The notes beneath the pieces were generated by a model. That model was given only the letters and a program-made list of their open reading frames with translations, did no database searches and had not been told where the DNA came from. This document shows, piece by piece, positions 12,625 to 42,422 of a stretch of 64,000 nucleotides of DNA (position 1 is its first letter; the number at the start of each line of letters is the position of its first letter). The DNA is taken from IMG/VR virus record IMGVR_UViG_3300034073_002120; one strand, given 5' to 3'. Made by a program: the position numbers and the translations under genes. This stretch comes from a virus. Its lineage: Duplodnaviria; Caudoviricetes.

Positions 12625-12656
12625 CTAATATAGGTAATTTATTTGATATTTCCAAA
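12625..12656 (-). promoter_or_regulatory. Bacteroidota-type primary-sigma promoter (-33/-7), likely early
   Basis: The minus strand reads TTTG-(20 nt)-TATATTAG. The Bacteroidota consensus is TTTG-N19-21-TAnnTTTG. Confidence 0.7.
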
Positions 12657-12672
12657 TTATTTACCATTTTTT

Positions 12673-12963: not shown

Positions 12964-12975
12964 ATCTTTTATATT

Positions 12976-13203
12976 TTATTTTAACCATAAATTGTAAACA
13001 TAATCATAACTTACCTCCATACTCTCAGCAAGTTTCTCAAACAATCGTTCTCTGATGATACTATCACCAACACCAATATATCGGTAAACATCACCACCGA
13101 TAATCAATTGATTTAATAGACCAGGAAAGGTTGGAGTTTCGTTAAGTTCTAATCCCAATTCATCAGTTGGGTAGTTTTCTAAATAAAATTCTTTAAGTTT
13201 CAT
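12976..13203 (-). CDS. Small hypothetical protein
   Basis: ORF track. It has the same taaaacataaaatATG leader. Confidence 0.65.
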   Translation of the reverse strand: MKLKEFYLENYPTDELGLELNETPTFPGLLNQLIIGGDVYRYIGVGDSIIRERLFEKLAESMEVSYDYVYNLWLK

Positions 13204-13231
13204 ATTTTATGTTTTAAAGGGTAGTTGTAAT

Positions 13232-13402
13232 TTATAAATTATTTACTTTTCTGATTCTTGCTATTAGTTTTTTCTCTCTTAGTGTAGCATTATAATATTG
13301 TTCAACTAATTCTAATTGTTCATTTGTCAATGGGTATTTAAATACTATAAATTTAACCCATGTTAAGAATATCTGAATGTTGTAGATGATGAATCGTTTC
13401 AT
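13232..13402 (-). CDS. 56-aa hypothetical protein below the ORF-track cut-off (MKRFIIYNIQIFLTWVKF...RKVNNL)
   Basis: Hand translation. It has the same taaaacataaaatATG leader as its neighbours and is the first gene after the promoter at 13442-13473. Confidence 0.6.
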   Translation of the reverse strand: MKRFIIYNIQIFLTWVKFIVFKYPLTNEQLELVEQYYNATLREKKLIARIRKVNNL

Positions 13403-13441
13403 ATTTTATGTTTTAATTGTTTATCTCTCAATCTTACATAG

Positions 13442-13473
13442 CTAAACTACACATTTTTTACCAATTTTCCAAA
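13442..13473 (-). promoter_or_regulatory. Second Bacteroidota-type promoter, likely early
   Basis: The minus strand reads TTTG-(20 nt)-TAGTTTAG, followed by ct(a/t)tgtaa as in the copy at 12625. Confidence 0.7.
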
Positions 13474-13532
13474 TATTTTATCACTTTTTTTTCAATTATT
13501 TTTGGCCATTGATAATCAACTAGTTATGGGCA

Positions 13533-13560
13533 TAAAAAAGAGGTAAAATTACCCCTTTTT
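13533..13560 (-). terminator. Terminator overlapping the GIY-YIG stop codon
   Basis: The minus strand reads AAAAAGGGGTA-ATTT-TACCTCTTTTTT. Confidence 0.6.
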
Positions 13561-14112
13561 CACAAAATTTCCCTTATCATCTCTCTTCATTACCCTATTA
13601 CTCAAAAAGGCCCTTCTTTCATCATACATCCGTTGACCGGCTTCCTTTCCGTTCCTATCTATGTACCATTCTAAGGAGAATCTACCCTTAGCCTTCTCTT
13701 TTTGTTTCAGTTTTGCCTCCTCTGAATGGGATTTGCCGAACATACCATTCTTATCACCCTTTGTAAGTTCTTTCATCTTAGATACGAATTCAGTATATTC
13801 ATCAGTATCTCTCCTACCATACCATATATCCCCACCTTCACCTTTATATATTGCGTTTAATCCTCCCTTTACTGAATTGTATGCAAGTATTAGTTCTTCT
13901 TCTACTTTTACGGATTCTTTTGGGTCTACCTCGCATATAATTTCCTTTTTAAAATTATCCCATCCGTATTTACGAACTGCTTTGTATAATGGAAAATCTA
14001 ATTTCTTATGATATGCTGCTCTATAATGACCATACATTCTATCATCGAAATCAAAAGTACGTCCAATATATACCTTTCCGTTGGGTGATGTTAATTTATA
14101 AATTATATCCAT
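13549..14112 (-). mobile_element. Free-standing GIY-YIG homing endonuclease with NUMOD3 motif
   Basis: N-terminal IIYKLTSPNGKVYIG and NUMOD3-like GMFGKSHSEEAKLKQKEKAKGR. It is flanked by terminators directly after the capsid gene. Confidence 0.85.
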
Positions 14113-25518: not shown

Positions 25519-27105
25519 TTATTTTATTAACCACGATAAATCTTCTGTTCCACTACCAACTCTCATTTGCCATGGATTTTCATCAAATGAACTATTACCA
25601 CCAAACCCACCAATATCGGTTACACTTTGATTTATACCACCCAAAGCCTGTTTAGTTAAATCTATACCTTCTTGTCTTAATCTTAATGCAGTATCTCTAA
25701 CCCATAAACCAATTGAAAGAGACATTACCAAGTCATCATTATATCCTTTCATTGCTTCAGCACGATTACCATTCCATATAAATGTAAATAACTCATCTAT
25801 CAACCTTGTAGAACGGATTGTAAAGGATTTCTCTCTTAGGTAATCATCTAACTTAGAAATAATTAATGGACGGGTTTTAGAGGTAGTAGAGAACCCAGCA
25901 ACCATACCTCTTTCTTCTGCTCGGAACTTATTTGTCATTTGATGAGCAACATCTACATATTTTAAATCCTTACTCATATAAAATAAGTTTCCATATCCTC
26001 TATCAATTACTTGTTGGATAACCGCCCAACCAATATTTGCGTTCTCCACAACTAATAATGCGTTGTTGTAATCAGTTGATAATGAAACTAAGAAGTTTCC
26101 AAAATCTTTTGTATCTAATTTACCTTTATACTCAGCAACTTGCGTTGAATTCACTACATCAAATACTTGTGCAGTAGAATAATCGGCTCCATCGCCACGA
26201 GCAACGTCGGCAACTACCATATATGATTGATTGTAATCTGGATATTCCCATTTCCAAAGATTTCCATCGAACCCGGTCTTCTCTAAAGGTTCTTGACAAT
26301 ACGTTTCTCTATAAAATTGTAATAATGCAGGGTCAATGACAGTATCACCGGAACTTACAAAGTCACAATCACACTCTTGTGCAGCACCTTTAGGTCCTAA
26401 TAACCTTTCTTGTTCATCTCTCCATGCTTGTCCACGCTCAGGGTGAACTGACCAGTGTAAACGAATTGTATTGAAACCATTTCTACCTTCTTCTGCACCT
26501 ACCCACGTTCTATGAAAGAAATTACCCACACCATTAGGTGTAGAAAGGATAATTGCATTACCACCCGTTGATAAAGTAGATTGTGCAGAAATCCAAATCT
26601 CTTCAATACTATCGATGAACGCAGCCTCGTCAAATACTAAGAGTGATAAGGCTTCAGAACGACCCGCATCTCCTGCTGCAGAAGTTGCTTTTGCCTGTGA
26701 ACCATTTGAATATCGTAATGAAAGTTTATTATCTTCAACTGTTGTTTGTTTTAACCAACTTGGTAAGTATTGGTTCATTACCCTAATCTTTGTGATAAGG
26801 TTTTTAGCAACTTCTTGTTTAGTTGCAATTACCAATACGTTAAAATCTTGATTAAACAACATCTTCCATAATGAGAACCCCGCAACTAAGGTTGATATAC
26901 CTGTCTGACGGGATTTAAGAACGATGTTGTAACGATTATCCTTAAAATCAGTAAGAGTATCCTCTTGGAAAGGATATAAGTGAAATGGAATCTTACCTCG
27001 TACCGGATGTTGAATCATACAATACTTACGCATGAAATAAATCGGGTCACCAGCACATTTCTGATACTCAATCTTTATAATATCTTTTAATGATGCACCT
27101 GCCAT
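25519..27105 (-). CDS. terL: Terminase large subunit, T4 gp17-like
   Basis: Walker A LKSRQTGIS, Walker B LLVFDEAAF, coupling motif STPNG, nuclease VADVARGDGADYS and DDLVMS. No intein. Confidence 0.96.
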   Translation of the reverse strand: MAGASLKDIIKIEYQKCAGDPIYFMRKYCMIQHPVRGKIPFHLYPFQEDTLTDFKDNRYNIVLKSRQTGISTLVAGFSLWKMLFNQDFNVLVIATKQEVAKNLITKIRVMNQYLPSWLKQTTVEDNKLSLRYSNGSQAKATSAAGDAGRSEALSLLVFDEAAFIDSIEEIWISAQSTLSTGGNAIILSTPNGVGNFFHRTWVGAEEGRNGFNTIRLHWSVHPERGQAWRDEQERLLGPKGAAQECDCDFVSSGDTVIDPALLQFYRETYCQEPLEKTGFDGNLWKWEYPDYNQSYMVVADVARGDGADYSTAQVFDVVNSTQVAEYKGKLDTKDFGNFLVSLSTDYNNALLVVENANIGWAVIQQVIDRGYGNLFYMSKDLKYVDVAHQMTNKFRAEERGMVAGFSTTSKTRPLIISKLDDYLREKSFTIRSTRLIDELFTFIWNGNRAEAMKGYNDDLVMSLSIGLWVRDTALRLRQEGIDLTKQALGGINQSVTDIGGFGGNSSFDENPWQMRVGSGTEDLSWLIK

Positions 27106-27106
27106 A

Positions 27107-27766
27107 TTACAAATAATGTTCCAATTTGTTTTCTTTTAAAATTTCAAATGCTTTATTACGAAATTCTTCTACTTTAATAAGTTCTTCTTTACCGAACTCA
27201 ATCATTTCCATCAAATCCGCTTTAACTTCATCTACTGATTGTGGTAATTCCCATTTTTCAGTAGTTCCATCTTCATTCACATATTCGTAAAATGGTTTTA
27301 CATCACTATATGCTTGTTGAAGTTCTTCTAATTTAATTTTACCATCAATCAACATACGAGTATATATTTTATAATCCTCATATTGTTCCCAAAATCCTAA
27401 TGCACGAATTTTAGTTTCGATTTCTGCTAAACAATTAGCACAATAACCTGTTTTTTTGATTAGAGTTTTGTGAGTAGGTGTAAATTTGATTGTTTTACAA
27501 TTTGGACTTTTGCATTGAGATTGCTCATCTCGCCATTTACGAAGTTCTTCAAATGCTTCTGAATTTTTAGAAGTCTTTAAAGTAAATCCTTCTTTCTTTT
27601 CATATCTATGATGTTCGTCTTCCCAAACATCACCAACTTTACGTTCAATCTTATCGGCGTTCCATCCTAATGTGGTATTAGTTTCATAATCAGAACCATG
27701 TAACACCATATCAACCAACTTTCTACGAGTTGGATGCATATATTTCTTTTTAAACTCTTTCGCCAT
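27107..27766 (-). CDS. Uncharacterised protein immediately upstream of terL (CxxC pairs; possible terminase-associated factor)
   Basis: Stop lies 1 nt before the terL ATG. Contains CKSPNC and CANC motifs. Confidence 0.6.
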   Translation of the reverse strand: MAKEFKKKYMHPTRRKLVDMVLHGSDYETNTTLGWNADKIERKVGDVWEDEHHRYEKKEGFTLKTSKNSEAFEELRKWRDEQSQCKSPNCKTIKFTPTHKTLIKKTGYCANCLAEIETKIRALGFWEQYEDYKIYTRMLIDGKIKLEELQQAYSDVKPFYEYVNEDGTTEKWELPQSVDEVKADLMEMIEFGKEELIKVEEFRNKAFEILKENKLEHYL

Positions 27767-27820
27767 TATTATTATATATTAGGTTTTTATTTTAATATAG
27801 ATAAATATGGCGAAAGAGTT
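27753..27820 (-). promoter_or_regulatory. Perfect 14-bp inverted repeat whose downstream arm is the start codon and first codons of 27107..27766
   Basis: aactctttcgccat (27753-27766) pairs with atggcgaaagagtt (27807-27820). The 40-nt loop holds a late-motif variant at 27800-27807. Confidence 0.8.
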
Positions 27821-27824
27821 ATTT

Positions 27825-30800
27825 TTAGTAAAAAATACCCAAAAGTTGATTTAATGATGCGAACGCACCAGTTAGTTTGAACGTTTGTCCGTTGTATATG
27901 AATACAATACCTTCAATTGGAACTATTTTAGATGGTCCACCGATTGCATTCAATCTTTTTAATTCTAATTTTAATTTTTCTATTTTTTTAGGGTCACCAC
28001 TTGCTTCTACATCTTTGATAGTTTGGTCTAATCTCTTTTTCATATCTCTAACAGCCTTGTCAGGATTTACTGTCAATACTGATGATGTGAATTGTAGAAC
28101 TTCTGCACCTACTCCTAAGAAAATATCTTCGAATTTCATTAGATTATCTTTTGCAATTCCTTTTTGGTCTTCCTTATCCATCTTAGTTGCCCAAGCAAGT
28201 GTTTTCTCATCCACAATTGTATTCTTATCAATACGGAATCCTTTATCACCGAATGCCCATCTCTTTACCAATCCAATTTTAGTGGTATTATCTAATGTTG
28301 ATGGTGATTTTTTATCTACATAGTTTTCCCACCACGCTTGATGATATTCAGCAACACCGGCAGTATCACCTAATCCAAATTCTTTTTGTAATTTAGATAT
28401 TTTAGCAAGATACTTTGGTTTCTTAGATGAAAGGTCTTGTGATTTCGGTAATTTTAATACAGGTGGTCCTTGTAAAGTGTAATTATCTTGTACATTCTGT
28501 TCGATTTGTTTAATCATACCACCCAATACTCTACCTGCTTCTGCAGATTCACCTACTGCGTTACCACTTTCATCATACTCCATAGTTCCGTGAAATACTA
28601 ATAAAGGTTGACCATATGGTATAACGTTTACCGATGTTGGGTATATCACCTCAATATTCATAAAACATGCACCATTCTTAAAAATCTTTTCTTTTTGTTT
28701 ATCTGATAGTGATGATATAGCCTTTGTTAAATCTTTCATTGCAAAGTTATATGCTTTTTCTAATTCACCTCTTCCAGCAAACTTAGTAGCAACACCACTA
28801 ATATCTAATGCATTTGCACCTCTATTTGCTAAGTGTGATTTATTACGAGCTGCAACTAACTTACCATTTACCCAACTGATTGCTAATGCCTGTCCATCGG
28901 TCTTCTCTCTAGCTAATTCTAAATTACCTTCTAATGCACGATTTACAATATCTTTTAATTGACCAAATGTTAAATTGATTTCAGTATCAAATGGATGATT
29001 CATATGTCCATATGCACCACCTTCATTTATTATTACTTCTTTTACTGGTTCATATCCTCTATCTTCATCATCTTTTGTATCAGTTTGATGACCAGGTTGT
29101 TTTTTTCTTTTATCATCAAAATCAATTGTATCTAATTCTGCAGGATGTCCATAATCCGGTGCATATGTAGAGGTTTTGTGATGATGCATAAAATTATGCT
29201 CAACATCAGTTTCTGCTTTATGATTTTTTGAATTTATTGATTCAAATGCTTTAGGTGTTTTTACTTTATACCAACCACCACCAGGAGTTCTAAATATTCT
29301 AGCAGGTATTTCTAATACCCCGTTTGCAGGTAATTTAGAACGATATTTACTATCTATATGAACTACTTTAGTTATGAATACTTTTGTTTTATTATTTGAA
29401 CCCAATAATTCAACTTCTATTTTAACCGGTTGACCACCAATTTTTATAGTTCCTGCAAATATTTCACCCTTAGTAAGTTCATTTATATCATCATCTTCTA
29501 AATCTGGTTGTCCTGAATCTTTTGTTGGGAAATTGGTTTTACCTCTATATTTGTTTGGATTAGTTCCGATTGCAGTATGGTAATCCCAACCAGTTCCATA
29601 GTTAAAACTTTGTGGAACTCTACCTTCTTCAATTGATGCTAGGTTTGTATAATATTTTGGGTCTTCAAAAAGATGGTCTAACGCTATTTCCTTTGCAACA
29701 TCACTATCAGTTGTATGTTCTCTTTCAACTTTATATCCTTTTTTGAACTCATCGGTTATATCTTCAATTGATACATTATGTTTTGTAGCAATATCACTTA
29801 AAGATAATCCTTTTGCCAATCCGCCAGGTATTTTATCCACTTGAACTGCAATTTCAACGGAAAGAGTTGGGTTAGATGTTTTGAAATCATCCTTTCTCAT
29901 TACTGTTTTTGCAATAATTTGATTTGCTTGTTTAACAAATGGAATGTTTATATCATATCTCTTGTCTTTAACAACAATTTGATTATACTTTTCTAAAAAC
30001 TCTTTAAATTCTTTTTTATGACGTGCTAATCTCTTAAAAAATCCTGTCAATTCTGGTTCTGATATTTCTTTACCATTACGAGTATCATTTACTCTATCAA
30101 AGAAGTGTTTAGTAAATTCAATATCTTCTGGTGATAGTTGTTTCTCTGCATATTTCTCAATTTGATTTAATTGAGAATGACTCATTTCGGATACATTTTG
30201 TTTTTCGTTGTACGAATCTATTGCTTTCTCCATTACATCTGCAGGAATTTCCATATTTTCTAAACCATCTGCTATTTTATCTGAAAATAACATAAGTAAT
30301 CGTTCTTCTTCATTTACATCTGCAAATAATGCTGCTTTTCCTGCTCCCATTGCTAATGTTTCTGCAATAATATGAGGAACAAACTCTACTGCCAAATGTT
30401 GTGCAAATGGTAAAACTCCATGTGATAATCCACCGGTTGCGATTCCAAAAATTGCTGTGGTGACTATTTTTTTACCAACATCAACTAATGCTTTTTTCTC
30501 ATCTTCCGATACACCTTTACCACTTACAAAATTAGCAACACCTTTACCTGCTGTTTTAAATAAATGTGCTTCATGTTTAAGTCCATGAACAATAGCATTT
30601 CTAGCACCCTTTGTTTTATCTCTTAATGCCTCACCCCAACTTCTACGTTCATCCGATTTTGGTTTATCCTGATGTTTTGTAAAGAATTCTTTTTCTTTTT
30701 CTGCCCAACCACTAATCTTTCTTTTTAAATTCTTTACACTATACTTTGAAACATCAGCACCACCATCTTCTGGTTCCGAACCTTTATTAAATACACCATC

Positions 30801-32684
30801 ATAATCCATTACTTTCACCGGTAATTTCTTACCATACGCAGTAAATGACATTAAACGAGTATTTCCTGCAACTAAATGTAAATCACCATTTTTATCTCTT
30901 AAAGCAATTGGTGGTGGAACGTTATTTCCTTTTTGAATACCTTTTTCTAATCTATTCCAATCCTTACCATATTCATCTGCAAGTTCTTTACCTCTTGCTT
31001 TCATAGCATTAGAACCACCTTCTTCACTTGCAGAAAGAATTTCACCAACATCGGTATTACTCATATTCTGCATATCTTCGGATGATAAGTAAATAGGTTT
31101 TGCTGCTTTCATTTTCTGAATCATATCTGTTTCATCTTTGAAAGCATTTGGTGCAACGTTTTTAGTTACATCATTTTCAAAATATTCACCAGTCTCACCT
31201 TGATATTCTTCATCACTATAATCTCTAATATTTTTTACCTTTGCACGGTCATCATCTAAGATTTCCCAACCATCTTTCCCACTTGTCCAATCTTCTTTTG
31301 GTTTAGCAGGTTGTTGTTTAACACTTTTGTCGTGTTTAAACATATCTGCACCTTGTATTGCTTGACCAGTTGGTTTTGTTTTTTGTGTAGAAGGTTTATC
31401 TGATTTTAATTCAATATATTTACCACTATCATCTTTTTCAAATGTAGGTGCGTTTTGGTCTTTCTCCTTACCTTTCTCTTTATACTTTCCATACCCAACG
31501 TGCACGTATTTATCATCGTCATTTCCTTCCAATAAATCTAATAATTGAGAATACTCACTAATTAGTTCTTCTACTATATCTTTCTTTTTAGCTTTTTGTT
31601 TTTTCACTTTTATTTTCTCTACTGGTTTTGTTACATCAATATCAGATGGTGCATATGGATATGTTGTTGCTTCAAAATCCGCTCTTGCGTTGTTTTTTGA
31701 TTTAATTTTAAATGTGAATTGGTCTTCATCATCTTTAGCAAATATTGCATCTGCTTTTGGAAAATCAGTTTGAGTATATCCGCCTCTTACAAACCACTCA
31801 TCACTACTATTTACACCATCATCTGCACCTAATTTACGTTTTTTACCTTTTGGTAAATAACCACCATCTGGTTGCGAATCTTCACCACCACTTGCTATAG
31901 CAGTTTCGTTAAAAATATTTTGTTTTGGTATTATTCTGAATGTGGTTGCTTTTTTACCATTTATAGTTGGCATTCCATGTTCATCTTTACCGATTGATTT
32001 CACTACTACTTTTTTATTTTTGAATTTACCCATTAAGACAGTATCACCAATATTGACATCCATCGTAATATCTTCATTTATTGATTCGCCTAACTTTGCT
32101 AATTTAAGTGTAATGAATTTGTAGATTGTTTCATCAAATTTTGGATATGCTTTTAAGAAATTTTTTCTCTTTTCATCATCACTACCTTTACTTAACCAAT
32201 TACGAACATCAGTTCCACTAACTGCGTTTGGTTGAGCAGGTGAAGCATAAACGTATCCTTTATCTTTATACCCAAATTCAATTTTACCTTTATATTTTTC
32301 AAAGTATTTACCACCCAAACGTTGTTTGTCTTTTTCACCAACAACAGTTATAAATCCAGTTGTAGTTTCATCGAAATTTTTAAGTATTTCAGTAGGAGCA
32401 TAAGGATTCTTAACCTCAACTATTTTGTTTGATGGAATACCAAACATTTTAGTCATTATGGTTTTCTTTTCCTTAAAATTAAATGGTGATTTTTGATTAT
32501 CGGTTTTATTAGATGTACCGATATACACTCTATCCTTACCAAACTTTTTTACAAGTCCTTGATAAGTTGCAAGGTGACCTTTGTGAAATGGTTGAAATCT
32601 ACCTGAATATACTACAACAAAATCTTTTAACTCCTCTTCGGTTAAAAGTATTTGTTCCATCAGATATTTACTTAATTCATTCAT
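27825..32684 (-). CDS. 1619-aa multidomain protein: HIGH-family cytidylyl/nucleotidyltransferase, ParB/Srx-like, DUF5661-like and C-terminal KxDG-containing domains
   Basis: YSGRFQPFHKGH; PPPIALRDKNGDLHLVAGNTRLM; TKHFFDRVND.RN; VEREHT.D..VAKEIALDHLFEDPKYY; EGGAYGHMNHPFD...REKTDGQAL. Confidence 0.7.
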   Translation of the reverse strand: MNELSKYLMEQILLTEEELKDFVVVYSGRFQPFHKGHLATYQGLVKKFGKDRVYIGTSNKTDNQKSPFNFKEKKTIMTKMFGIPSNKIVEVKNPYAPTEILKNFDETTTGFITVVGEKDKQRLGGKYFEKYKGKIEFGYKDKGYVYASPAQPNAVSGTDVRNWLSKGSDDEKRKNFLKAYPKFDETIYKFITLKLAKLGESINEDITMDVNIGDTVLMGKFKNKKVVVKSIGKDEHGMPTINGKKATTFRIIPKQNIFNETAIASGGEDSQPDGGYLPKGKKRKLGADDGVNSSDEWFVRGGYTQTDFPKADAIFAKDDEDQFTFKIKSKNNARADFEATTYPYAPSDIDVTKPVEKIKVKKQKAKKKDIVEELISEYSQLLDLLEGNDDDKYVHVGYGKYKEKGKEKDQNAPTFEKDDSGKYIELKSDKPSTQKTKPTGQAIQGADMFKHDKSVKQQPAKPKEDWTSGKDGWEILDDDRAKVKNIRDYSDEEYQGETGEYFENDVTKNVAPNAFKDETDMIQKMKAAKPIYLSSEDMQNMSNTDVGEILSASEEGGSNAMKARGKELADEYGKDWNRLEKGIQKGNNVPPPIALRDKNGDLHLVAGNTRLMSFTAYGKKLPVKVMDYDGVFNKGSEPEDGGADVSKYSVKNLKRKISGWAEKEKEFFTKHQDKPKSDERRSWGEALRDKTKGARNAIVHGLKHEAHLFKTAGKGVANFVSGKGVSEDEKKALVDVGKKIVTTAIFGIATGGLSHGVLPFAQHLAVEFVPHIIAETLAMGAGKAALFADVNEEERLLMLFSDKIADGLENMEIPADVMEKAIDSYNEKQNVSEMSHSQLNQIEKYAEKQLSPEDIEFTKHFFDRVNDTRNGKEISEPELTGFFKRLARHKKEFKEFLEKYNQIVVKDKRYDINIPFVKQANQIIAKTVMRKDDFKTSNPTLSVEIAVQVDKIPGGLAKGLSLSDIATKHNVSIEDITDEFKKGYKVEREHTTDSDVAKEIALDHLFEDPKYYTNLASIEEGRVPQSFNYGTGWDYHTAIGTNPNKYRGKTNFPTKDSGQPDLEDDDINELTKGEIFAGTIKIGGQPVKIEVELLGSNNKTKVFITKVVHIDSKYRSKLPANGVLEIPARIFRTPGGGWYKVKTPKAFESINSKNHKAETDVEHNFMHHHKTSTYAPDYGHPAELDTIDFDDKRKKQPGHQTDTKDDEDRGYEPVKEVIINEGGAYGHMNHPFDTEINLTFGQLKDIVNRALEGNLELAREKTDGQALAISWVNGKLVAARNKSHLANRGANALDISGVATKFAGRGELEKAYNFAMKDLTKAISSLSDKQKEKIFKNGACFMNIEVIYPTSVNVIPYGQPLLVFHGTMEYDESGNAVGESAEAGRVLGGMIKQIEQNVQDNYTLQGPPVLKLPKSQDLSSKKPKYLAKISKLQKEFGLGDTAGVAEYHQAWWENYVDKKSPSTLDNTTKIGLVKRWAFGDKGFRIDKNTIVDEKTLAWATKMDKEDQKGIAKDNLMKFEDIFLGVGAEVLQFTSSVLTVNPDKAVRDMKKRLDQTIKDVEASGDPKKIEKLKLELKRLNAIGGPSKIVPIEGIVFIYNGQTFKLTGAFASLNQLLGIFY

Positions 32685-32706: not shown

Positions 32707-32714
32707 TATAAATA
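32707..32714 (-). promoter_or_regulatory. Representative copy of the putative late-promoter motif, sense TATTTATA
   Basis: Exact plus-strand tataaata occurs in intergenic gaps at 3676, 3682, 6654, 11021, 11480, 14128, 23279, 25492, 32707, 50081, 51838, 52937 and 61303, each upstream of a minus-strand ATG. Confidence 0.65.
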
Positions 32715-32729
32715 TGAATGTTTTCATAA

Positions 32730-32858: not shown

Positions 32859-33537
32859 TTTTTCTATTTGGGTCTTTAAAGTAAATTCTATACACATATC
32901 TATTCCAATTTTCAATTTTAGTAACCGAATGGGATATTCCTGGTGTATTATAATATGAATCAAAAATTACTAATTGATTTTTTTTCGGTTTATAGGTATA
33001 AATAATATTTTTACCGGTTTCATCATCATAAAAAAGAACATCACCGCCAATATCACCCTCTTGCATATCAGTACAATATAAAACTGCAGTACATAATCTA
33101 CTATTACCAGGTGATGTATCGGAATGAATTCTCATTAAATAACCAGGACCATATTCGATTACCGATTGATATTCTATTTCTATGTTGTTATTATTATAAA
33201 TCTCTTTAATGAGATTATGTATATTTTTTGTTATTGTTTCTCGTGTTTGATTACTTAACATTATATCAGAATCACGTCTTAATAATTCATAATCTGTATC
33301 TATATCATAATTTTTATGAAACATTTCTTTTTCAATATCAGTAAAATCTTTATAAAATTTTTGATAAATACCGAAAGTTGTATTTGTTATATTGTTTGTT
33401 ACTGCAAATCTAACTGATTGATTTCCTTCACTTTTTTGGTCTATTATTTCATTAGTAATAGTATCAAATATATTTGTATCTATGACATCATCATAGATAA
33501 AAAATCTTTTAGCAGTATCTTCATATATTTTTATCAT
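32845..33537 (-). CDS. 2OG-Fe(II) oxygenase, prolyl-4-hydroxylase-like
   Basis: YGPGYLMRIHSD (HxD), TAVLY, GGDVLF, KPKKNQLVIFDS, SHSVTKI and distal R. Confidence 0.8.
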   Translation of the reverse strand: MIKIYEDTAKRFFIYDDVIDTNIFDTITNEIIDQKSEGNQSVRFAVTNNITNTTFGIYQKFYKDFTDIEKEMFHKNYDIDTDYELLRRDSDIMLSNQTRETITKNIHNLIKEIYNNNNIEIEYQSVIEYGPGYLMRIHSDTSPGNSRLCTAVLYCTDMQEGDIGGDVLFYDDETGKNIIYTYKPKKNQLVIFDSYYNTPGISHSVTKIENWNRYVYRIYFKDPNRKNELI

Positions 33538-34985
33538 AATAAATGTATTTCTTCATTATTGTTAATAATTTTATTAAGATTTTTCATATAAATATCAGCT
33601 ACATATTCATCAGTATATTTTAATAAATGATTTCTATTATACTCTAATATATGAAACATTTGTTTCATCATTTCATCCCATTCTTCGGTTGATTTAGTTA
33701 TTAGTGTTTTTATCAATTCATATACTTTAATAATTCTATCACTATTATTTTCAATATCATCATAACTTTCATCCCAAAAATCACTAAATGTTTTAAATCC
33801 ATAATTTTTAAGAGTTTTAAGAATACCAGGTCTACCTACTAATACAAATGGATGTAAATGAGCTATTGGTTTTAATGTTTTTTCTGAAATATATGTTCCC
33901 ATTTCATAAAATAACGTTTCTGCTACAATACTAAAATATGTTTTTTCATATATATCTTTTGTTTCAAACGCAAATCCCCATACTGAATCTAAATCATCAT
34001 AATCTACAACTCTCTTTTTTATTTTTGTTAAATTATGAAACCCCGTACTCATTTTATTTTTATAATGTTGTGGTTCTATATATGGGTTTCCATCATATCC
34101 ACCACCATTAACCAAATCCAATCCCGCATCTGGTGTATATAACATTTCTCCCATATCAAACGATGAAAGAGTATTATTTAATAACCCATCATTTTGTAAT
34201 AAAGATAAAATAACCAATCGATGTGGTCGTAATCTACGATTTAACATCAATGCTTTCTTTTCCCTATTTTTTAATTCAAGTAAATCATTTGTTTTTGTAA
34301 TTGAATTTATATTAGTATGACCGTTAAAATTCATTTCACTTACATCGTTCAATAAATCACGAGTTTCTTTACTTTTAGCAAATATTGGCCATGGATAACA
34401 AGTTGTTTTTAATAAATTTTCTGGATTATTAGTTTTTACATAATAATTTTTATACAATTCAGTAGTATTTGCAGATGCTGTGATTATCAATATCTTAGAT
34501 GGGTTTATATCTAATCTATCACAAGTTTTATGAATATTATCAAATAGTTCTGGTTTAATATCACCCTCACTACTATAATCAAATATTAAAAAAAAGTTTT
34601 TGGCCTTTAAATTTTCTTTTGCACGAGCTGATATGAAATCAAACGTATGTTTATTTTGATGATATGTAAAATCATCGCCAGTTGATACTAATAAATTTCC
34701 GAATGGTGCGATTGTGTAATAATAGACATCTGATGGGTTTCCTATTGTGTTAGTATTATCATCATATTGTAAATCATTTATATGATGGTCTTTTATACAC
34801 ATATCACCAATATTTAAATAACAATCATATACTGCTATTTGTAAATATTTTTTTGAAAACGCAGTAATAAAATCATTATCAATAAAAAAATTATTATCCC
34901 ACAAATCACTTGTAAAATTATAATTCAATCCATTTGGAATAAATCCACTTGGACCTAAAAAATCAAAAACTCTATGTATTTGCAT
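33534..34985 (-). CDS. Putative glycosyltransferase, paralog 1 of the ET...EK..KPI family; likely start MQIHRV at 34985
   Basis: LMLNRRLRPHR, YFSIVAETLFYEMGTYISEKTLKPIAHLHPF and GFKTFSDFWDESYD. Confidence 0.55.
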   Translation of the reverse strand: MQIHRVFDFLGPSGFIPNGLNYNFTSDLWDNNFFIDNDFITAFSKKYLQIAVYDCYLNIGDMCIKDHHINDLQYDDNTNTIGNPSDVYYYTIAPFGNLLVSTGDDFTYHQNKHTFDFISARAKENLKAKNFFLIFDYSSEGDIKPELFDNIHKTCDRLDINPSKILIITASANTTELYKNYYVKTNNPENLLKTTCYPWPIFAKSKETRDLLNDVSEMNFNGHTNINSITKTNDLLELKNREKKALMLNRRLRPHRLVILSLLQNDGLLNNTLSSFDMGEMLYTPDAGLDLVNGGGYDGNPYIEPQHYKNKMSTGFHNLTKIKKRVVDYDDLDSVWGFAFETKDIYEKTYFSIVAETLFYEMGTYISEKTLKPIAHLHPFVLVGRPGILKTLKNYGFKTFSDFWDESYDDIENNSDRIIKVYELIKTLITKSTEEWDEMMKQMFHILEYNRNHLLKYTDEYVADIYMKNLNKIINNNEEIHLL

Positions 34986-35523
34986 AATATAATTCAGGAT
35001 ATTCAACCAATAGATGAATACCAACATTTTCTATTGCATATTTATAACTTAACTCAACATCTTGCCAAGTTTTTAAATCATGGAATTCAATATTTGGACA
35101 CATTGATTTAAATTGCTCAGTATAATTCCCTTTATGTTGATGACCTGGGTCTAATGGTTTATCAGAACCTTTACCAACTCTAATTAGGATATGTGGATTC
35201 CAAGTACCATCTGACATTAATCCGATTTTATCTAAATGATTCACAAGTTGATTAGTTGCACATATTAAAAAATCCCAACGTGGATAAAAACTTACTACTT
35301 TATGGCCATTCATAGCCAATCCTAAACTCATTCCCATTTGAGTTTCTTCCATAACAGGAACTTCAATCATTTTTTCTTTTGGTAATCCTTCAATAGTCTT
35401 TGACATTGGATTTCCATAATATACAATTTGTTGTCCTATAAAAATAGTAGATTCATCTTCCATTATAGTCTTCATAGCACTTGTCAATGCATCTACATAT
35501 GGTGTAAATTGTGGTGAACTCAT
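34972..35523 (-). CDS. TPP-dependent enzyme beta-like subunit (transketolase pyrimidine-binding domain only)
   Basis: IFIGQQI, EVPVMEETQMGMSLGLAMNG, FLICATNQLVNHL.K and GHQH. No C-terminal domain. Confidence 0.8.
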   Translation of the reverse strand: MSSPQFTPYVDALTSAMKTIMEDESTIFIGQQIVYYGNPMSKTIEGLPKEKMIEVPVMEETQMGMSLGLAMNGHKVVSFYPRWDFLICATNQLVNHLDKIGLMSDGTWNPHILIRVGKGSDKPLDPGHQHKGNYTEQFKSMCPNIEFHDLKTWQDVELSYKYAIENVGIHLLVEYPELYYANT

Positions 35524-35526
35524 AAC

Positions 35527-36519
35527 TTATGGTTTTGAATTTGGATTATATTCGTTTTTATGTTCTTTATACCATTCGATGGTTTCTTTCAATGCCTGTT
35601 TTAAATCTCTTTTTGGTTTCCAACCTGCATCGTTTATTTTTTTAGATGAAAGTAATCTAACCGGAATCATCGGTGCCTTATTATTTACAAATTCGATTGG
35701 ATTAGTGTTTCCTTCAATTTCCTTAATCCACCCTAACACTTCATTAACACTATAACCCTTTCCATAAGCAACATTAAAAATATTGTATGTATCGTTGTTC
35801 TCAGCAACCCAAATAAATCCATCGGCCATATCTTCTACGTGCAATAAATCTCTGATTTCAGAACCATCGCCCCATACCGGAATTGGATTTAAATTATCTG
35901 CTACTTTACGAATGTTTGCGGGTGTAACATGACACTTTTCAAAATCAAATTTATCATTTGGTCCGAATGCGTTTGAAGGTCTAACAATTAAACATTGCAT
36001 TGGATTGTGAATTTGATGTGAAAAATAATCACAAAGTAATTCACCATATCTTTTCATATTACCAACTGCTCCATATATTGGGAATGTAGGTGTTGCATGA
36101 ACATTTATATCTTCCGTACAAAACTCATCCTTCATATCTGGATAAACTGTATTAGATGAAATGAATAAGAATTTCGTAACCCCATTTCTCCAACTTTGTT
36201 CCATCAAATTTACATTCATTTCTACATTTGGAGTAACGTGTAATAGAGGATTTTCTTTTGTATCTAATGCATTTGATGTATTTGCTGCACAATGAAATAC
36301 TACATCTACACCTTCGGAAACTTCTGCACAAAACTTTGCATCTTGTAAATTTCCTTTATAAAACGCAACATCAGATGTTCCTACGAAATCGTTTCTTAAA
36401 TTTCTACTATGAGATGTTGCTCGTAGGTTTCTATAACCTTTCTCCCATAATAATCTTAATAGATGTGAACCAATAAATCCACTTGCACCAGTAACTAAAA
36501 TCTTATCCGTTTTTTTCAT
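35527..36519 (-). CDS. NAD-dependent epimerase/reductase (GDP-L-fucose synthase-like extended SDR)
   Basis: VTGASGFIG, FLFISSNTVYP, RPSNAFGPND and VWGDGSEIRDLLHVED. Confidence 0.85.
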   Translation of the reverse strand: MKKTDKILVTGASGFIGSHLLRLLWEKGYRNLRATSHSRNLRNDFVGTSDVAFYKGNLQDAKFCAEVSEGVDVVFHCAANTSNALDTKENPLLHVTPNVEMNVNLMEQSWRNGVTKFLFISSNTVYPDMKDEFCTEDINVHATPTFPIYGAVGNMKRYGELLCDYFSHQIHNPMQCLIVRPSNAFGPNDKFDFEKCHVTPANIRKVADNLNPIPVWGDGSEIRDLLHVEDMADGFIWVAENNDTYNIFNVAYGKGYSVNEVLGWIKEIEGNTNPIEFVNNKAPMIPVRLLSSKKINDAGWKPKRDLKQALKETIEWYKEHKNEYNPNSKP

Positions 36520-36522
36520 AAC

Positions 36523-37488
36523 TTATTTTTTGTATTCGTTTAAATAATAATCTATCGTATGTTTCAATCCTGTCTTTAAGGATATTTTTTGTTTGATTCC
36601 AAATGATTCTGCACGTTCCGTACTCATCAATCGCTTCTCATCTCCATTTGGTTTAGTTGGGTCCCATTCAATTTGAACTTTAACTCCGTACATTTCTTCA
36701 TAGATTTCTACAAGAGTTTCTGCAAGTTCTTTGATTGTTACTCCAGTTCCACTACCTAAATTTATTGGTTGCGTAATACCTTGTTCGTATGCTTGAATAA
36801 TTCCATCTGCAACATCACCTGCATAGATAAAATCTCTAATAGGTGAACCATCTCCCCAACACACTAATGGATGTTCTTTCTCACCAAATAATCGTTTAAT
36901 TAAAGATGCGATGACGGTAGATTCTGGACCGAAATTATCATGTCTACCATAAATGTTTGCAGGTCTTACAATTGATGCTTTATTCCAATCATATGATACT
37001 GAATATACTTCTGCTTGAAGTTCTCCAAGTCTTTTTGCCCAACCTGCGTATTTATCTTTTTCTGATGGGAAGGTTTTCCAAACATCATCTTCGTAAAATA
37101 CTTCCGCCGGTTGATATACTCCAACTGTCGATGTGTAAACATACCATTCTACATTTTCTAAACGTGCAGCTTCCATCATATTGGTATTAAACTGCAACAT
37201 CGGTACAAAATAATCTGCAGGTTGTTCTGCTGCTCTTTTTGGAGAACCCTTTACACCTGCAATGTGGAAAATAACATCTTGTCCTTCCACTACTCTTTTA
37301 CAATTTTTGAATTCTCTTAAATCAGCTTTAATAAACTGATAATCACTCTCTTTGTATTTTTCTAATTGATTTAATGGTTCTACAATATCTACGGCGGTTA
37401 CGATTGCACCTCTTTGTAAACATTTTTCTACCATATAATTACCAACCAATCCGTTGGCACCCGTTATCAAAACCTTTTTACCATTCAT
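36523..37488 (-). CDS. NAD-dependent epimerase/reductase (GDP-fucose synthase/GDP-mannose epimerase-like)
   Basis: ITGANGLVG, YAGWAK, RPANIYG, WGDGSPIRDFIYAGD, NLGSG and WDPTKPNG. Confidence 0.85.
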   Translation of the reverse strand: MNGKKVLITGANGLVGNYMVEKCLQRGAIVTAVDIVEPLNQLEKYKESDYQFIKADLREFKNCKRVVEGQDVIFHIAGVKGSPKRAAEQPADYFVPMLQFNTNMMEAARLENVEWYVYTSTVGVYQPAEVFYEDDVWKTFPSEKDKYAGWAKRLGELQAEVYSVSYDWNKASIVRPANIYGRHDNFGPESTVIASLIKRLFGEKEHPLVCWGDGSPIRDFIYAGDVADGIIQAYEQGITQPINLGSGTGVTIKELAETLVEIYEEMYGVKVQIEWDPTKPNGDEKRLMSTERAESFGIKQKISLKTGLKHTIDYYLNEYKK

Positions 37489-38620
37489 TTTCTATTGTTT
37501 TTAATATTTTATCTAAACTATCAATTTCCATCGAATCAAATAGTTGTTTATTATATATACATATATGTTTTACATTTTTATATAATTCATTTAACTCTTC
37601 GATTGGTTTTGAATTAAATTCTTTTACAATTTTCAATATACTGAAAAATCGTTCTTTAGGGTCTACAATCAAATCATAACTTTCATCCCAAAATTCATTA
37701 AATGTTTTAAATCCATATGAACGTAATTTTTCTAAATATCCATATGGTCCAAATACAATAAATGGTTGGTAGTTAATTATAGGTTTTAATATTTTCTCTG
37801 AAATAAATAATTCATTTAAATCATAAGATGTTTCGGTTACTAAATGTATACAAGAATTTAAAAATAATTCTTTTTTAAATGTATTGGTTACACTAAAATT
37901 AGATTTATCTTTTATGTTGAATGTATCTAATTCAATTGGTAAGTGTTTATTAAAAAATTCAATTGGTATTTTTTTATCATCTAACTGGTATATTAATGAA
38001 TATCCTTCGGTTTTCAATAAAAATGTAAAATATGAATCTGAATAATCGTTTGTAAGATATTCATAAAATAATGATATTCTATGAGGTTTATCGTTATTAC
38101 GATTAAAACATAAAAATTTTTTATTCCTAAATACGTCTAATTCAGATATTTCAATTTCTTCACTAACATATCCTAACGAATTTTTATCACTAATAAAATT
38201 ATCGTTTTTATGCCAAATAGCTTCTTCTAAGAAAAAATCAAAAGTAAATATATTAGGTAAACGAGTATTACTATCTAATAAATAATATTTGTTTTTTGGT
38301 AATTTTGTTTGAATATAATCATATCCAAGTTCAAATGTGGGTTCATTGCATGGGTCTGGCATGCTTGTAAACAACATTTTTACATCATTTGTTTTTATGT
38401 AATCAAATATACTATCTGGTATATGTAATAAACTTTCAAATTTATGATTTGATTCTATTAATAATATATTTTTTTTGGTTTCATCCAACTTACCATCTAA
38501 AGTATAAGAGTATTTTTTTTCTATAATATAATTAAAAATTGGGCCTTGTTGTGAGTAACGCTCATCTCCATTATAATCTAATGAATTTTTTAAAAATACA
38601 AAATTTAAATTGTCGTTCAT
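37478..38620 (-). CDS. Putative glycosyltransferase, paralog 2
   Basis: FLCFNRNNDKPHR, IHLVTET...FISEKILKPIINYQPF and GFKTFNEFWDESYD. Confidence 0.55.
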   Translation of the reverse strand: MNDNLNFVFLKNSLDYNGDERYSQQGPIFNYIIEKKYSYTLDGKLDETKKNILLIESNHKFESLLHIPDSIFDYIKTNDVKMLFTSMPDPCNEPTFELGYDYIQTKLPKNKYYLLDSNTRLPNIFTFDFFLEEAIWHKNDNFISDKNSLGYVSEEIEISELDVFRNKKFLCFNRNNDKPHRISLFYEYLTNDYSDSYFTFLLKTEGYSLIYQLDDKKIPIEFFNKHLPIELDTFNIKDKSNFSVTNTFKKELFLNSCIHLVTETSYDLNELFISEKILKPIINYQPFIVFGPYGYLEKLRSYGFKTFNEFWDESYDLIVDPKERFFSILKIVKEFNSKPIEELNELYKNVKHICIYNKQLFDSMEIDSLDKILKTIENEW

Positions 38621-39576
38621 TATCTTCTGTCTATTTTTTTTGTACTATTTCTAACAAATTTATTTTCATGTTTAAAACTATCAAATAATGATTCATTTTG
38701 AACATATCCCTTTTCACACATCTTATCAAACATAAAATCACCAAATTCTATTTGTGGAGAATATAAGTGTAGGAGTGAAATATTTAGTTTTATATATTGT
38801 TTTATTCCATCTATTATAGATTGTTTATCTCTAAAATCTGATTCAGTAATTTCCCAATCAGCATTAATAAATTTACCATTCACTAAATCAATATATGTTC
38901 CAACTTTATCTACAAAAATAGATTCAAAAAATATTATATTATCTTTAAATGTTGATTCATAAAATGGATATAATCCTTTTGCATCTTCTATTGGTAAATT
39001 ACCCTTATATGTAAAATATCTTCCTTTGAATTTATAACCATAAACCTTTTCCAAATAATATTGTGTTGTTCCTTGAAATCCACTATCTACCATTATGATA
39101 TTTTTCGCAGAACCAATTACATCATCTATATATTTTTTATACTCAATTCTAAGTTCATTTGATTTGATAATAATCGTTTCAATCCATTCACTTAAATTCG
39201 GTAATTCCTTTGTTGTATCAATCCACTGTTTTGTAGTGTTTACTTTTACACCAAATCTATCAAATAATAAATCATTAATATCACCCTCATACCTATGTAG
39301 TTTAAATGAAGCATATATTTCAGTTTCCGTTGTAAATGAAATCATCGATGCTAATTTACGAGAAGTTTTGAAATATACACTCTTTGGTAAATCGTATTTA
39401 TCTCTATAAATTTCCCAAATATCTTTTAGAAAATATCCTTCTCGTGAATTAAATAAAACTAAATCGACATCATTTAGATTATCAATTAACCATTTAAAGT
39501 AATTGAATACCAAAGGGCCAATATATGTTGAACCTAATTCTTCTAATGTTTGAGGATTTCTATTAATCAATAACAT
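38620..39576 (-). CDS. Protein resembling the C-terminal region of HAD-superfamily capsule-cluster proteins
   Basis: GPLVFNY..WL, LFNSREGYFL, SRKLA and MVDSGFQGTTQ. Confidence 0.55.
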   Translation of the reverse strand: MLLINRNPQTLEELGSTYIGPLVFNYFKWLIDNLNDVDLVLFNSREGYFLKDIWEIYRDKYDLPKSVYFKTSRKLASMISFTTETEIYASFKLHRYEGDINDLLFDRFGVKVNTTKQWIDTTKELPNLSEWIETIIIKSNELRIEYKKYIDDVIGSAKNIIMVDSGFQGTTQYYLEKVYGYKFKGRYFTYKGNLPIEDAKGLYPFYESTFKDNIIFFESIFVDKVGTYIDLVNGKFINADWEITESDFRDKQSIIDGIKQYIKLNISLLHLYSPQIEFGDFMFDKMCEKGYVQNESLFDSFKHENKFVRNSTKKIDRR

Positions 39577-40003
39577 AAACTTTAAAACAAGGTATTCCTA
39601 ATTCAACCCACATATCGATTATTCGTTGGTCATCATCGTATGCACAAAATACATCTGATTTAATGTGCGTTTTATACATCTTCTTTTTGTAGATTGGTGC
39701 TTTTAAAAAATTATCTTCCCAACTTCGCATAATTAATTGGTCATATTCTATATCATATTTTTTTAACCATTCAATCGTAACTCCTCTAACTGACTCCGGT
39801 CGACCTGTAAGTAGTATAACCTCAAAACCATCTTTCTTATATCTTTTTGCTAAATCAATCATAGGATAAAATGGGTCATCCATCAAAATATTATTAGGAA
39901 TATGTGCTGCTTCCCAATCTATTTTTCCATTTGGCATTGTTGCTAGAGCAAATCGTATGTTACTATTACATAATGTATTATCTATATCAATTATTACTTT
40001 CAT
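39563..40003 (-). CDS. HAD phosphatase (PNK 3'-phosphatase-like domain)
   Basis: IIDIDNTL (DxDxT), LLTGRPE and AYDDD. Confidence 0.8.
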   Translation of the reverse strand: MKVIIDIDNTLCNSNIRFALATMPNGKIDWEAAHIPNNILMDDPFYPMIDLAKRYKKDGFEVILLTGRPESVRGVTIEWLKKYDIEYDQLIMRSWEDNFLKAPIYKKKMYKTHIKSDVFCAYDDDQRIIDMWVELGIPCFKVYVID

Positions 40004-41205
40004 AAATCTCGTATTCCCTGTTTTTCATACCCAACTGGTATTTTAATTCCAGTATTACACCCATTACAATTATCACAAAATGTAATATATCCTAAATTTG
40101 TATATCCCAAATCAAACTTTAATAATTCCTCTTTTGAAATTTTGTTTATATCCACATAATCATTTTCACTTAATGGAAATAACTTTGTTCTAACGGCCGA
40201 AGTGTTTAGATGACAATAATAAAACTTACCATCGTTCAATCCTCTAAATGGTGCGGTGCATGAATCAAAGTGTTTTATCAATTTATCAGTTGGTAAGTTT
40301 TTCTTAACTCTCAAATCACCAAAATCATACCATTCAATTTGGTTTCTAACATAATGATTAATATTGTTTTCTTTATATGAATCCAATACTTTTACAACCT
40401 TTTTCTTTATATGGTCTAACTTATCACTATAATCACTAACACTCAAAATAACATCATTATCTTTTAACAATTGAATGATACTATCTTTTGGTAAAATTGT
40501 GCCGTTTGTAGTGATTATTAGTTTATCAATTTTAGTTATGTAGTTTTCTAATAGGTGTTTAATTACATTTTCTATATTTGGATACAAAAATGGTTCTCCA
40601 CCAACTAAATGAAATACACTTACATAATCTACAATTTTAAAATAAGAATCTATATCAGAAATTATAGTGTCCAACTCTCTATGAATTGGAAATTCGTAAT
40701 GTGGCATGAACATATTGCAATGAGAACAATTCAAACTACACTTTTCAGTAACCAACATATCGGATTGAAATATATGAACTATATTTTTATGTTTATATGG
40801 CCAAATTGAAGCTATATTCTTATACCAAGTCCATTTTACACCATTTTCTTCTAAAAATTGTTTATATTTTTGTTTATAAACATCGGTTGTTATAATAACT
40901 TGCGTATTTGATGTAATTTCGAAATCATCTATGTGAATTAGTTGAATATTCTCTCTTTTTATCTCAATATTTTTTGATTGGTGATAAAATGAACTGATTT
41001 CGTTGATGTTATTTAACGTAGTTTGATTTTTTACATCATGGTCAACTATATATTTGATTTTTAATACGTTTTCGCCTAATAGTAAATCAATAGTTCTGAT
41101 GAATTGAATGCATTCTTTACTTGCACCAAATAAAACATATTCAGTATCTAAGTTCCAATCTGAAATGAACTTATCAAAACTATGTAACTCATCATTATAT
41201 AACAT
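40000..41205 (-). CDS. Radical SAM protein with N-terminal Rossmann-like domain
   Basis: CSLNCSHC, LVGGEPFL, ITTNGT and C-terminal Cys cluster C...C..C..C. N-terminal YVLFGAS. Confidence 0.85.
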   Translation of the reverse strand: MLYNDELHSFDKFISDWNLDTEYVLFGASKECIQFIRTIDLLLGENVLKIKYIVDHDVKNQTTLNNINEISSFYHQSKNIEIKRENIQLIHIDDFEITSNTQVIITTDVYKQKYKQFLEENGVKWTWYKNIASIWPYKHKNIVHIFQSDMLVTEKCSLNCSHCNMFMPHYEFPIHRELDTIISDIDSYFKIVDYVSVFHLVGGEPFLYPNIENVIKHLLENYITKIDKLIITTNGTILPKDSIIQLLKDNDVILSVSDYSDKLDHIKKKVVKVLDSYKENNINHYVRNQIEWYDFGDLRVKKNLPTDKLIKHFDSCTAPFRGLNDGKFYYCHLNTSAVRTKLFPLSENDYVDINKISKEELLKFDLGYTNLGYITFCDNCNGCNTGIKIPVGYEKQGIRDL

Positions 41206-41209
41206 ATTG

Positions 41210-41848
41210 TTAAAATACTACCCATTTTCCAGTTCCGTAGTGTGGATATTTTGATTTATATTGATAATAAATCACATCTTCAGGTATTTCTCTTTGAATT
41301 CCACCCCACGTATCCAAAGTTGGAGTATTTGTTGAAACACCATTATCTTCTACAACAAAATATAGTGGTAAATTATTATTTCTAGCGTATTTATGAACCT
41401 CATAAAAGATTCCGGTCTCAAAAGTCATATCACCGATGAAACACCACACTTTTTTATCTTCACCTTTTAACTTAATTGATTCAGCAACACCCAATGCAAT
41501 AGGTAAAATACCTGTTACAATTGCCGATGAATAAAAATTACACTTTTTGTTTACAATAGTGATACTTTTTCCATCCAAAATTTCGCCCATCAACCAACTT
41601 CTATCAATTCCATGCAACAAAGCATGGTAATGTGACCTCCAGGTCGAAAATACCCAGTCATCTACACCTACTTTTTTGAAAATTTCAATAAGTTGTTCTT
41701 CATTTCCGTTTGATAAGTGTATTGGGCCTCGGATTTTTCCACTTTCCCAATGCTTTATAACATCATCTTCGAACTGAATTAGGTCTTCAGGTGTTAAATT
41801 TCCATCTACCCATCTATCTTCGTGATAATTTAAGTTTTTAATTTCCAT
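41210..41848 (-). CDS. TPP-dependent enzyme alpha-like subunit (short E1-alpha-like)
   Basis: GPIHLS.GNEEQL, STWRSHYHAL, and TPP motif variant FIGDM...(x26)...VVEDNG. Confidence 0.85.
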   Translation of the reverse strand: MEIKNLNYHEDRWVDGNLTPEDLIQFEDDVIKHWESGKIRGPIHLSNGNEEQLIEIFKKVGVDDWVFSTWRSHYHALLHGIDRSWLMGEILDGKSITIVNKKCNFYSSAIVTGILPIALGVAESIKLKGEDKKVWCFIGDMTFETGIFYEVHKYARNNNLPLYFVVEDNGVSTNTPTLDTWGGIQREIPEDVIYYQYKSKYPHYGTGKWVVF

Positions 41849-42422
41849 TTCTATCCCTTTTTGATAATATTGGTTGTGCTACAGGCCACTCCACATTAAA
41901 TCTTTTATCGTTAAATACTATTGTCTTTTGCTTGTTCTCATCATTATACTCACCATCATACGCCATCTTATAAAAAAAGATAGAATCATCTTCCATCACA
42001 TAGTGGCCATTGGCAAACATAGGTGGAATTAAGACTTGTGTTGCGGTTTCCGGCGAAATTATAAAAGATTCCCATTTACCATAGGTTGGGGATTTAGGAC
42101 GAACATCCATAACTACCAAATATATCTTTCCTTGTAAACAACTTACCAATTTCCAAGTCTTCTCATCGTAATGCATTCCTCTCAATACCCCAATCTTTGA
42201 TTTTGAGTATCTATCATGTTTAAATTGTAACCCATTATTGCGTTCAGCGGCGGGCAACAATCTATCATAATAATCTGCATGATAAGTTGTAGAGATTGAA
42301 CCACGATATTCGTAATATGTGGATGGTTGTACGATTTTAACCTCTGGTAAAACCGAACCATTATAATAGTGGAAATCGTTCCAACTTCTCTCTTTGTAAA
42401 ATATACTACGTCCTTGTGCCAT
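41838..42422 (-). CDS. rfbC: dTDP-4-dehydrorhamnose 3,5-epimerase-like cupin
   Basis: GVLRGMHY, KLVSCLQGKIYLVVMDVR..SPTYGKW and LIPPMFANGH. Confidence 0.85.
   Translation of the reverse strand: MAQGRSIFYKERSWNDFHYYNGSVLPEVKIVQPSTYYEYRGSISTTYHADYYDRLLPAAERNNGLQFKHDRYSKSKIGVLRGMHYDEKTWKLVSCLQGKIYLVVMDVRPKSPTYGKWESFIISPETATQVLIPPMFANGHYVMEDDSIFFYKMAYDGEYNDENKQKTIVFNDKRFNVEWPVAQPILSKRDRNGN

Follow-up and report, generated by a model that had tools for sequence, protein, structure and literature searches.

Gene organization around the site

The window, meaning the whole stretch of DNA that was analysed (64 kb), carries all genes of the part considered here on the minus strand. Three of these genes surround the site of interest, listed in the order in which they are read:

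27825-32684, minus strand: 1619-aa gene with an N-terminal cytidylyltransferase-like domain and DUF5661, ending in the stop codon TAA at 27827-27825
27107-27766, minus strand: 219-aa gene of an unclassified family, the product having four conserved cysteines and a modelled C-terminal helical hairpin
25519-27105, minus strand: terL, encoding a large terminase of the T4 type, its ATG lying 1 nt past the 219-aa stop, with no leader of its own

The junction between the 219-aa gene and terL reads TAA-t-ATG, and a portal gene of the T4 gp20 type is located shortly downstream of terL. By this T4-type terL and gp20 portal the phage was found to be T4-like. When the region was compared with 50,697 phage records by megablast, no nucleotide match was returned and relatives were detected at the protein level only. 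TerL shares 55% identity with its counterpart in Microcystis phage Mel-JY01 and 54% with the one in Flavobacterium phage immuto. A member of the Bacteroidota is the probable host, the similarity considered for this assignment being that of TerL. The start of the 219-aa ORF was judged to be correctly placed because residues M1, K3 and F5 are unchanged in 26 homologues.

More than 1200 homologues of the 219-aa protein were found in freshwater and marine metagenomes, all of them unnamed. Searches of Pfam, PHROGs and PDB sequences for similarity to small terminases gave no match. An AF2 model (mean pLDDT of 76) matched only uncharacterised viral proteins, with no significant match in the PDB (best E-value of 0.3, to a prefoldin-like coiled coil). 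We read the modelled fold as comprising a small beta unit, a region with four cysteines and, at the C terminus, a long helical hairpin; these cysteines are conserved in the alignment of homologues. The protein is a small-terminase candidate by position only, and the "terminase operon" of the original prediction, a label which presumes that it is the small terminase, is supported by neither the sequence nor the structure searches. In phage Mel-JY01, a homologue is located directly after a cytidylyltransferase-like gene but five genes away from terL, and the function of the 219-aa gene may be linked to the 1619-aa gene upstream of it rather than to the terminase. In the record of this cultured cyanophage (L099, record 11243-13822), the giant cytidylyltransferase-like gene and the 219-aa homologue occur as a pair with a 21-nt gap.

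Anatomy and predicted stability of the hairpin

Between the 1619-aa and 219-aa genes, a perfect 14-bp inverted repeat was identified in which 27820-27807 pairs with 27766-27753 on the minus (sense) strand. As had been described originally, its 3' arm coincides with the start of the gene abutting terL and its 5' arm begins shortly past the 1619-aa stop, with 4 nt (27824-27821) separating the two; the coordinates proved correct. The features of the site, together with the motif found upstream of the 1619-aa gene, are as follows:

32707-32715, minus strand: ATATTTATA in its canonical form, situated 22 nt upstream of the 1619-aa start codon and the likely source of read-through RNA
27807-27820, minus strand: 5' arm, AACTCTTTCGCCAT in the sense direction, with the conserved core CTTTCGCCAT at 27816-27807 and an outer 4 nt that vary among relatives
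27800-27808, minus strand: promoter-like motif variant ATATTTATC (consensus ATATTTATA), lying between the arms with 2 nt common to the 5' arm
27767-27806, minus strand: A/U-rich loop of 40 nt, holding the promoter-like motif and the entire predicted leader
27767-27785, minus strand: leader AACCTAATATATAATAATA, with no Shine-Dalgarno site, nearly invariant across the family (53-100% protein identity)
27753-27766, minus strand: 3' arm ATGGCGAAAGAGTT, made up of the AUG, codons 2-4 and two bases of codon 5 of the 219-aa gene

RNA fold prediction for 27840-27730 gave a free energy of -27.4 kcal/mol (z = -6.96), with none of 200 shuffled sequences folding as well, and the predicted pairing probability of the AUG was 0.93. 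In the minimum-free-energy fold, the loop forms two further short helices of 4 bp and 7 bp, which are weak and composed of A/U only, and the series of 14 bp, 4 bp and 7 bp amounts to approximately 25 stacked pairs, long and irregular. Opening the region from -12 to +15 around the start codon was predicted to cost 21 kcal/mol when the RNA starts at 28000, 27900 or 27822, compared with 3.0 kcal/mol when it starts at 27796-27790.

In the 64-kb window, no second perfect inverted repeat reaches 14 bp when loops of 3-100 nt are allowed. Under a first-order Markov model, 0.14 such repeats are expected per window of this length and at least one was present in 11% of simulated windows, and the inverted repeat by itself is only mildly unusual. 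It had been argued that a 14-bp match aimed exactly at an AUG is unlikely by chance; it is because one arm begins exactly at the start codon and the repeat is conserved in relatives that the hairpin is regarded as more than chance. The second-longest perfect inverted repeat in the window is of 13 bp (57137-57149/57181-57193, TAAATGATGCATC/GATGCATCATTTA) with a 31-nt spacer and lies within a 1710-aa ORF. There is also an inverted repeat of 30 nt that is 83% complementary with a 59-nt spacer (43672-43701/43761-43790), situated in coding DNA of a block of sugar-enzyme genes.

An intrinsic terminator was considered and rejected, with the loop being 40 nt long, the 3' arm being followed by just UUU and the site not being called by the terminator scan. 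The genuine terminators of this phage consist of short G+C stems followed by a run of U, from which the hairpin differs. An Rfam scan of 27500-28100 produced no family match, only sub-threshold noise.

Promoter-like motif and leader

The motif ATATTTATA was found in 12 copies on the sense strand and one on the antisense strand between 3808 and 63811. Ten of the 12 sense copies lie in noncoding DNA, which makes up 3.8% of this interval, mostly 15-38 nt upstream of the ATGs of virion-region genes. Taken as a class, it is a genuine promoter-like element by its distribution, being oriented, strand-specific and intergenic. On the sense strand its sequence corresponds to the T4 late box in reverse complement, and it is therefore not the T4 promoter itself. 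The late-motif variant that had been reported at the edge of the arm was indeed found there, in its shorter form TATTTATC at 27807-27800 on the sense strand. The longer form ATATTTATC is off-consensus, being the sole copy in the window with a final C, and distant relatives carry the canonical ATATTTATA or ATACTTATA at the homologous place. If the motif acts as a -10-type element, transcription would start inside the loop and the resulting RNA would therefore lack the 5' arm. A hairpin of this kind is present at one of the 12 motif-gene pairs in the window, and no other copy of the motif in the window was found to be preceded by the upstream sequence that forms the 5' arm.

Many of the neighbouring late genes have AGGAG-like sites, unlike the 219-aa gene. 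Its leader, which takes the form AACCTAAT(A/G)T(A/G)TAA(T/C)A before the ATG, was the most conserved piece of noncoding sequence in the family (L001-L098), exceeding the promoter motif in this respect. AACCTAAT is not a general motif of the window, where 8 copies were counted against 4.4 expected, two of them on the sense strand. Elsewhere, a canonical copy of ATATTTATA at 52937-52945 (minus strand) ends 3 nt before the ATG at 52933 of a 345-aa ORF, which has either a leaderless mRNA or a wrongly called start.

Conservation of the stem among relatives

The upstream regions of 80 viral-contig loci, 18 loci from exact-protein look-up and seven metagenome loci found via the loop sequence were read. 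The stem is present in a clade of 14 distinct haplotypes with 81-100% protein identity, all from one sub-lineage, and also in the seven metagenome loci, a 10-bp core being retained. This core (CTTTCGCCAT/ATGGCGAAAG) is unchanged in 13 of the 14 haplotypes, L010 being the exception, and its noncoding half, the 5'-arm core CTTTCGCCAT, is unchanged in all 14 across the same range of protein identity. Among the four-fold degenerate sites of the gene, 7 of 37 are invariant in these haplotypes. The noncoding 5'-arm core is under purifying selection, because it is invariant while 81% of the four-fold sites vary, and the same is indicated for the motif and leader within the hairpin clade. For the 3' arm, synonymous constraint could not be distinguished from the generally low variation of the first 20 codons. 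The bases directly 5' of the core vary freely and the outer 4 bp are eroded (AACT, AATT, ATCT, TTCT and TTTA), and in L085 and L093 nothing but the 10-bp core is left of the stem.

Compensatory changes in relatives had been put forward as a check on the pairing. Double compensatory changes were absent from the 80 viral-contig, 18 look-up and seven metagenome loci. In L010, shared with L101, the 3' arm carries GCT AAG; a single C-U mismatch is left uncompensated, a U-G wobble is also formed, and the predicted fold is weakened to -15 kcal/mol. Substitutions that keep a G-U pair in the sense RNA were seen in the form of C to T opposite G12 (L005/L006 and L012) and of A to G (L010), and these mildly favour a structure acting at the level of RNA on the sense strand.

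The repeat could instead be a mutational by-product, that is, an imperfect repeat homogenised by template switching, with the 5' arm being kept as a DNA-level element, such as the upstream portion of the promoter or a site bound by a protein, rather than for pairing in RNA. Template switching is known to homogenise the arms of repeats (PMC8604942, PMC7202029), and a mismatch-free stem fits a single copying event. The 5' arm abuts the promoter motif, compensatory changes are lacking, and the sister lineages L014 (78% protein identity) and L096 (73%) carry a homologous segment (TTTTCGTAT and TTTTGGCAT, respectively) that is poorly complementary to the start of the gene. Nevertheless, the core has stayed unchanged while most four-fold sites have changed, the 10 conserved nucleotides are exactly the complement of the AUG and the 7 nt following it, the tolerated stem substitutions include two that keep G-U pairing in the sense RNA only, and other copies of the motif in the window do without this upstream sequence. 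Such a by-product is considered unlikely as a full account, while template switching may well have been the origin of the perfect stem even if the stem is functional now.

A recognition site acting in DNA, for packaging or recombination, was also considered. Several pac phages have their pac site inside the small-terminase gene or next to it, and a pac-like site at the start of such a gene would agree with the position of the repeat at the start of the gene preceding terL. This is highly improbable in the present case, as only its position makes the 219-aa protein a candidate small terminase, close relatives are without the repeat and the C to T substitution in L005/L006 and L012 breaks the symmetry of the DNA while keeping the pairing in RNA.

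The 5' arm is absent from L009, whose protein is 89% identical, from the clade of 72% identity (L015-L034) and from L090, L040 and L052. L009 differs from the hairpin clade in how the upstream gene ends, in its intergenic sequence and in codon 2. Evidently this locus is a recombinant, and the point of exchange seems to fall right at the beginning of the gene, which provides a natural allele without the arm. The approximately 100 nt upstream and the first codons of L009 (IMGVR_UViG_3300043434_000427) resemble those of the 72% clade.

In the clade of 53-60% identity, a pyrimidine-rich segment, GGTTTCTYYAT, pairs weakly with ATGRGTAAAGAA, at approximately the 10th-50th percentile of genomic 22-mers, which is not significant. 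Several of the 5' segments in this clade are able to pair with AUGRG or UAAAGAA, with CTCTAT, for instance, occurring only alongside ATGGG, these sequences being non-independent. This pairing was dropped as evidence on account of its energy rank (approximately 0.1-0.5 among genomic 22-mers) and the non-independence of the sequences, and is suggestive at most. Among the loci read, the hairpin is lineage-specific and not a trait of the family. The device is regarded as dispensable because the hairpin is missing from L009, the 72% clade, L090, L040 and L052 and pairing is insignificant in the 53-60% clade.

Possible read-through transcription and the question of timing

The terminator scan detected no terminator-like site in the interval from the 1619-aa promoter to the hairpin. 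Host-type promoters (TTTG, a spacer of 16-23 nt and TAnnTTTG) were not enriched upstream within the window, with nine found against 7.5 expected. As the 1619-aa gene has a canonical ATATTTATA motif, no terminator follows it and host-type promoters are not enriched, the obvious read-through RNA would belong to the same temporal class as RNA started at the internal motif. The original prediction held that the hairpin times DNA packaging; this claim is weakened by the upstream promoter being of the same type (32715-32707), the lack of a terminator-like site in between and the absence of enrichment of host-type promoters. Further upstream, genes that are closely packed or overlap occupy approximately 16 kb (33534-49859, minus strand) without an intergenic copy of ATATTTATA, and this stretch is probably a single long transcription unit feeding towards the 1619-aa gene.

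Contigs from RNA libraries of three studies, derived from relatives that are approximately 90% identical, were found to cross the start codon and loop, with two of them spanning the whole 5' arm. The contigs that bridge the hairpin are a weak hint of read-through RNA, these metatranscriptome data being assembled contigs of such relatives, which cannot show starts, strands or single molecules. No meaning is attached to contig ends near 27815-27855.

With an upstream promoter of the same class, read-through RNA should be abundant and would have to be handled, which raises the possibility that the hairpin is an element of RNA processing or stability. As a substrate of a double-strand-specific RNase such as RNase III, or as a protector of the 3' end of the 1619-aa mRNA, it would decide downstream expression through cleavage or protection rather than by the choice of promoter. 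The approximately 25 stacked pairs beginning 4 nt past the stop codon would suit such a role, as would the off-consensus motif in the loop. The site, however, bears no hallmark of a known processing site and has no Rfam match, its inner helices are weak and A/U-only, conservation coincides exactly with the stretch pairing with the AUG and the structure is unlike the short G+C stem and U run of the real terminators of the phage. A processing or stability element is a doubtful explanation here.

The short distance of 4 nt between the stop codon and the 5' arm also brings translational coupling to mind, in which the 5' arm would be opened by ribosomes reaching the end of the 1619-aa ORF, with the 219-aa gene being translated on read-through RNA only together with the upstream ORF. 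Takyar, Hickerson and Noller reportedly placed the helicase site of the ribosome at about +11 from the P site in 2005. A terminating ribosome would open merely 1-3 or so of the outer pairs, whereas the conserved core, at 8 nt past the stop codon, is farther away than a ribosome usually reaches; L085 and L093 have no stem other than this core. Coupling of this kind is very unlikely.

Proposed promoter-dependent masking of the start codon

The favoured explanation, with a probability of roughly 0.5, is promoter-dependent masking of the 219-aa gene, and probably of terL through coupling, by the RNA hairpin. Under this explanation, the hairpin would act in cis to make translation of the 219-aa gene depend on the promoter from which the RNA originates. 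Read-through RNA from the 1619-aa gene would hold both arms, with a 10-14 bp stem enclosing the AUG and codons 2-5. A transcript initiated at ATATTTATC, between the arms, would be without the 5' arm and would present an open, A/U-rich leader. Given a leader with no Shine-Dalgarno site and a probable Bacteroidota host in which initiation would be tuned mainly by mRNA structure, the masking is expected to be strong. TerL probably relies on ribosomes finishing the 219-aa gene, in a termination-reinitiation coupling that is plausible because terL, after a gap of 1 nt, has no leader of its own.

Since the upstream gene has the same type of promoter, a role in insulation and dosage is more likely than one in separating early from late expression. 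Abundant late transcription from upstream would then be unable to drive the 219-aa protein and TerL, whose dosage would be set by one off-consensus promoter. The original reading, in which a hairpin over the start codon gates expression until an internal promoter fires, agrees with the AUG lying in a predicted stable stem, the promoter-like motif between the arms, the leaderless terL and the conserved arm core; its timing and the terminase-operon label were not supported, the hairpin is not shared across the family and compensatory double changes were not seen in the loci read.

A wider and decidedly speculative version may also be offered, in which the device is a promoter-of-origin filter within an all-late unit in a host blind to Shine-Dalgarno sites. 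With a stem sitting immediately upstream of a phage-sigma promoter, terminase-region proteins would come from a single, deliberately weak promoter alone, however much late transcription arrives from upstream. The weak pairing GGTTTCTYYAT/ATGRGTAAAGAA, seen in the marine and freshwater family at large, would be its ancestral, tunable form. This version is improbable.

Relation to known systems

In phage T4, the genes e (lysozyme), soc, 49 and I-TevI have their start sites sequestered in longer transcripts, and late promoters located in the DNA of the 5' strand give rise to open, translatable RNAs (PMC3014915, section 29). The arrangement described here resembles these in that the start codon would be sequestered by a segment upstream of an internal phage-type promoter, here a predicted motif, and in that RNA from the internal promoter would lack the 5' strand and should be translatable while the longer RNA would be masked. 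It differs from them in several respects. The sense-strand promoter motif is ATATTTATA, whereas T4 has TATAAATA; there is no Shine-Dalgarno site to mask but just the AUG and codons 2-5; and the upstream gene has the same type of promoter, with the early-versus-late logic of T4 not being evident. In addition, the affected gene precedes terL and the device is limited to one sub-lineage and known from sequence alone.

A hairpin at the mobE gene of Aeromonas phage Aeh1 was reportedly described by Gibb and Edgell in 2009 (ref. 106 of PMC3014915). mobE is a homing endonuclease gene, whereas a morphogenesis-region gene is affected here. In Flavobacterium johnsoniae, initiation is independent of Shine-Dalgarno sites and tuned by mRNA structure (PMC6847099). 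The leader of the 219-aa gene is similar in being A/U-rich and without a Shine-Dalgarno site, and accessibility of the start would be the main determinant of initiation, although the F. johnsoniae case is a general property of the host and not a switch, and the host of the present phage is an inferred one. By analogy, the hairpin is best filed as a new lineage-specific example of the masked-start, internal-promoter device of T4 and not as a new mechanism. If confirmed, it would extend this device to a very distant, uncultured freshwater branch of the T4-like phages with a different late-type promoter box, whose host probably does not use Shine-Dalgarno sites, and in which the device would set the dosage of packaging-region genes rather than separate early from late. 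The natural variants represent an allelic series, ranging from the full 14-bp stem of the window through the 10-bp core of L085 and L093 and the mismatched stem of L010 and L101 to the complete lack of the arm in L009.
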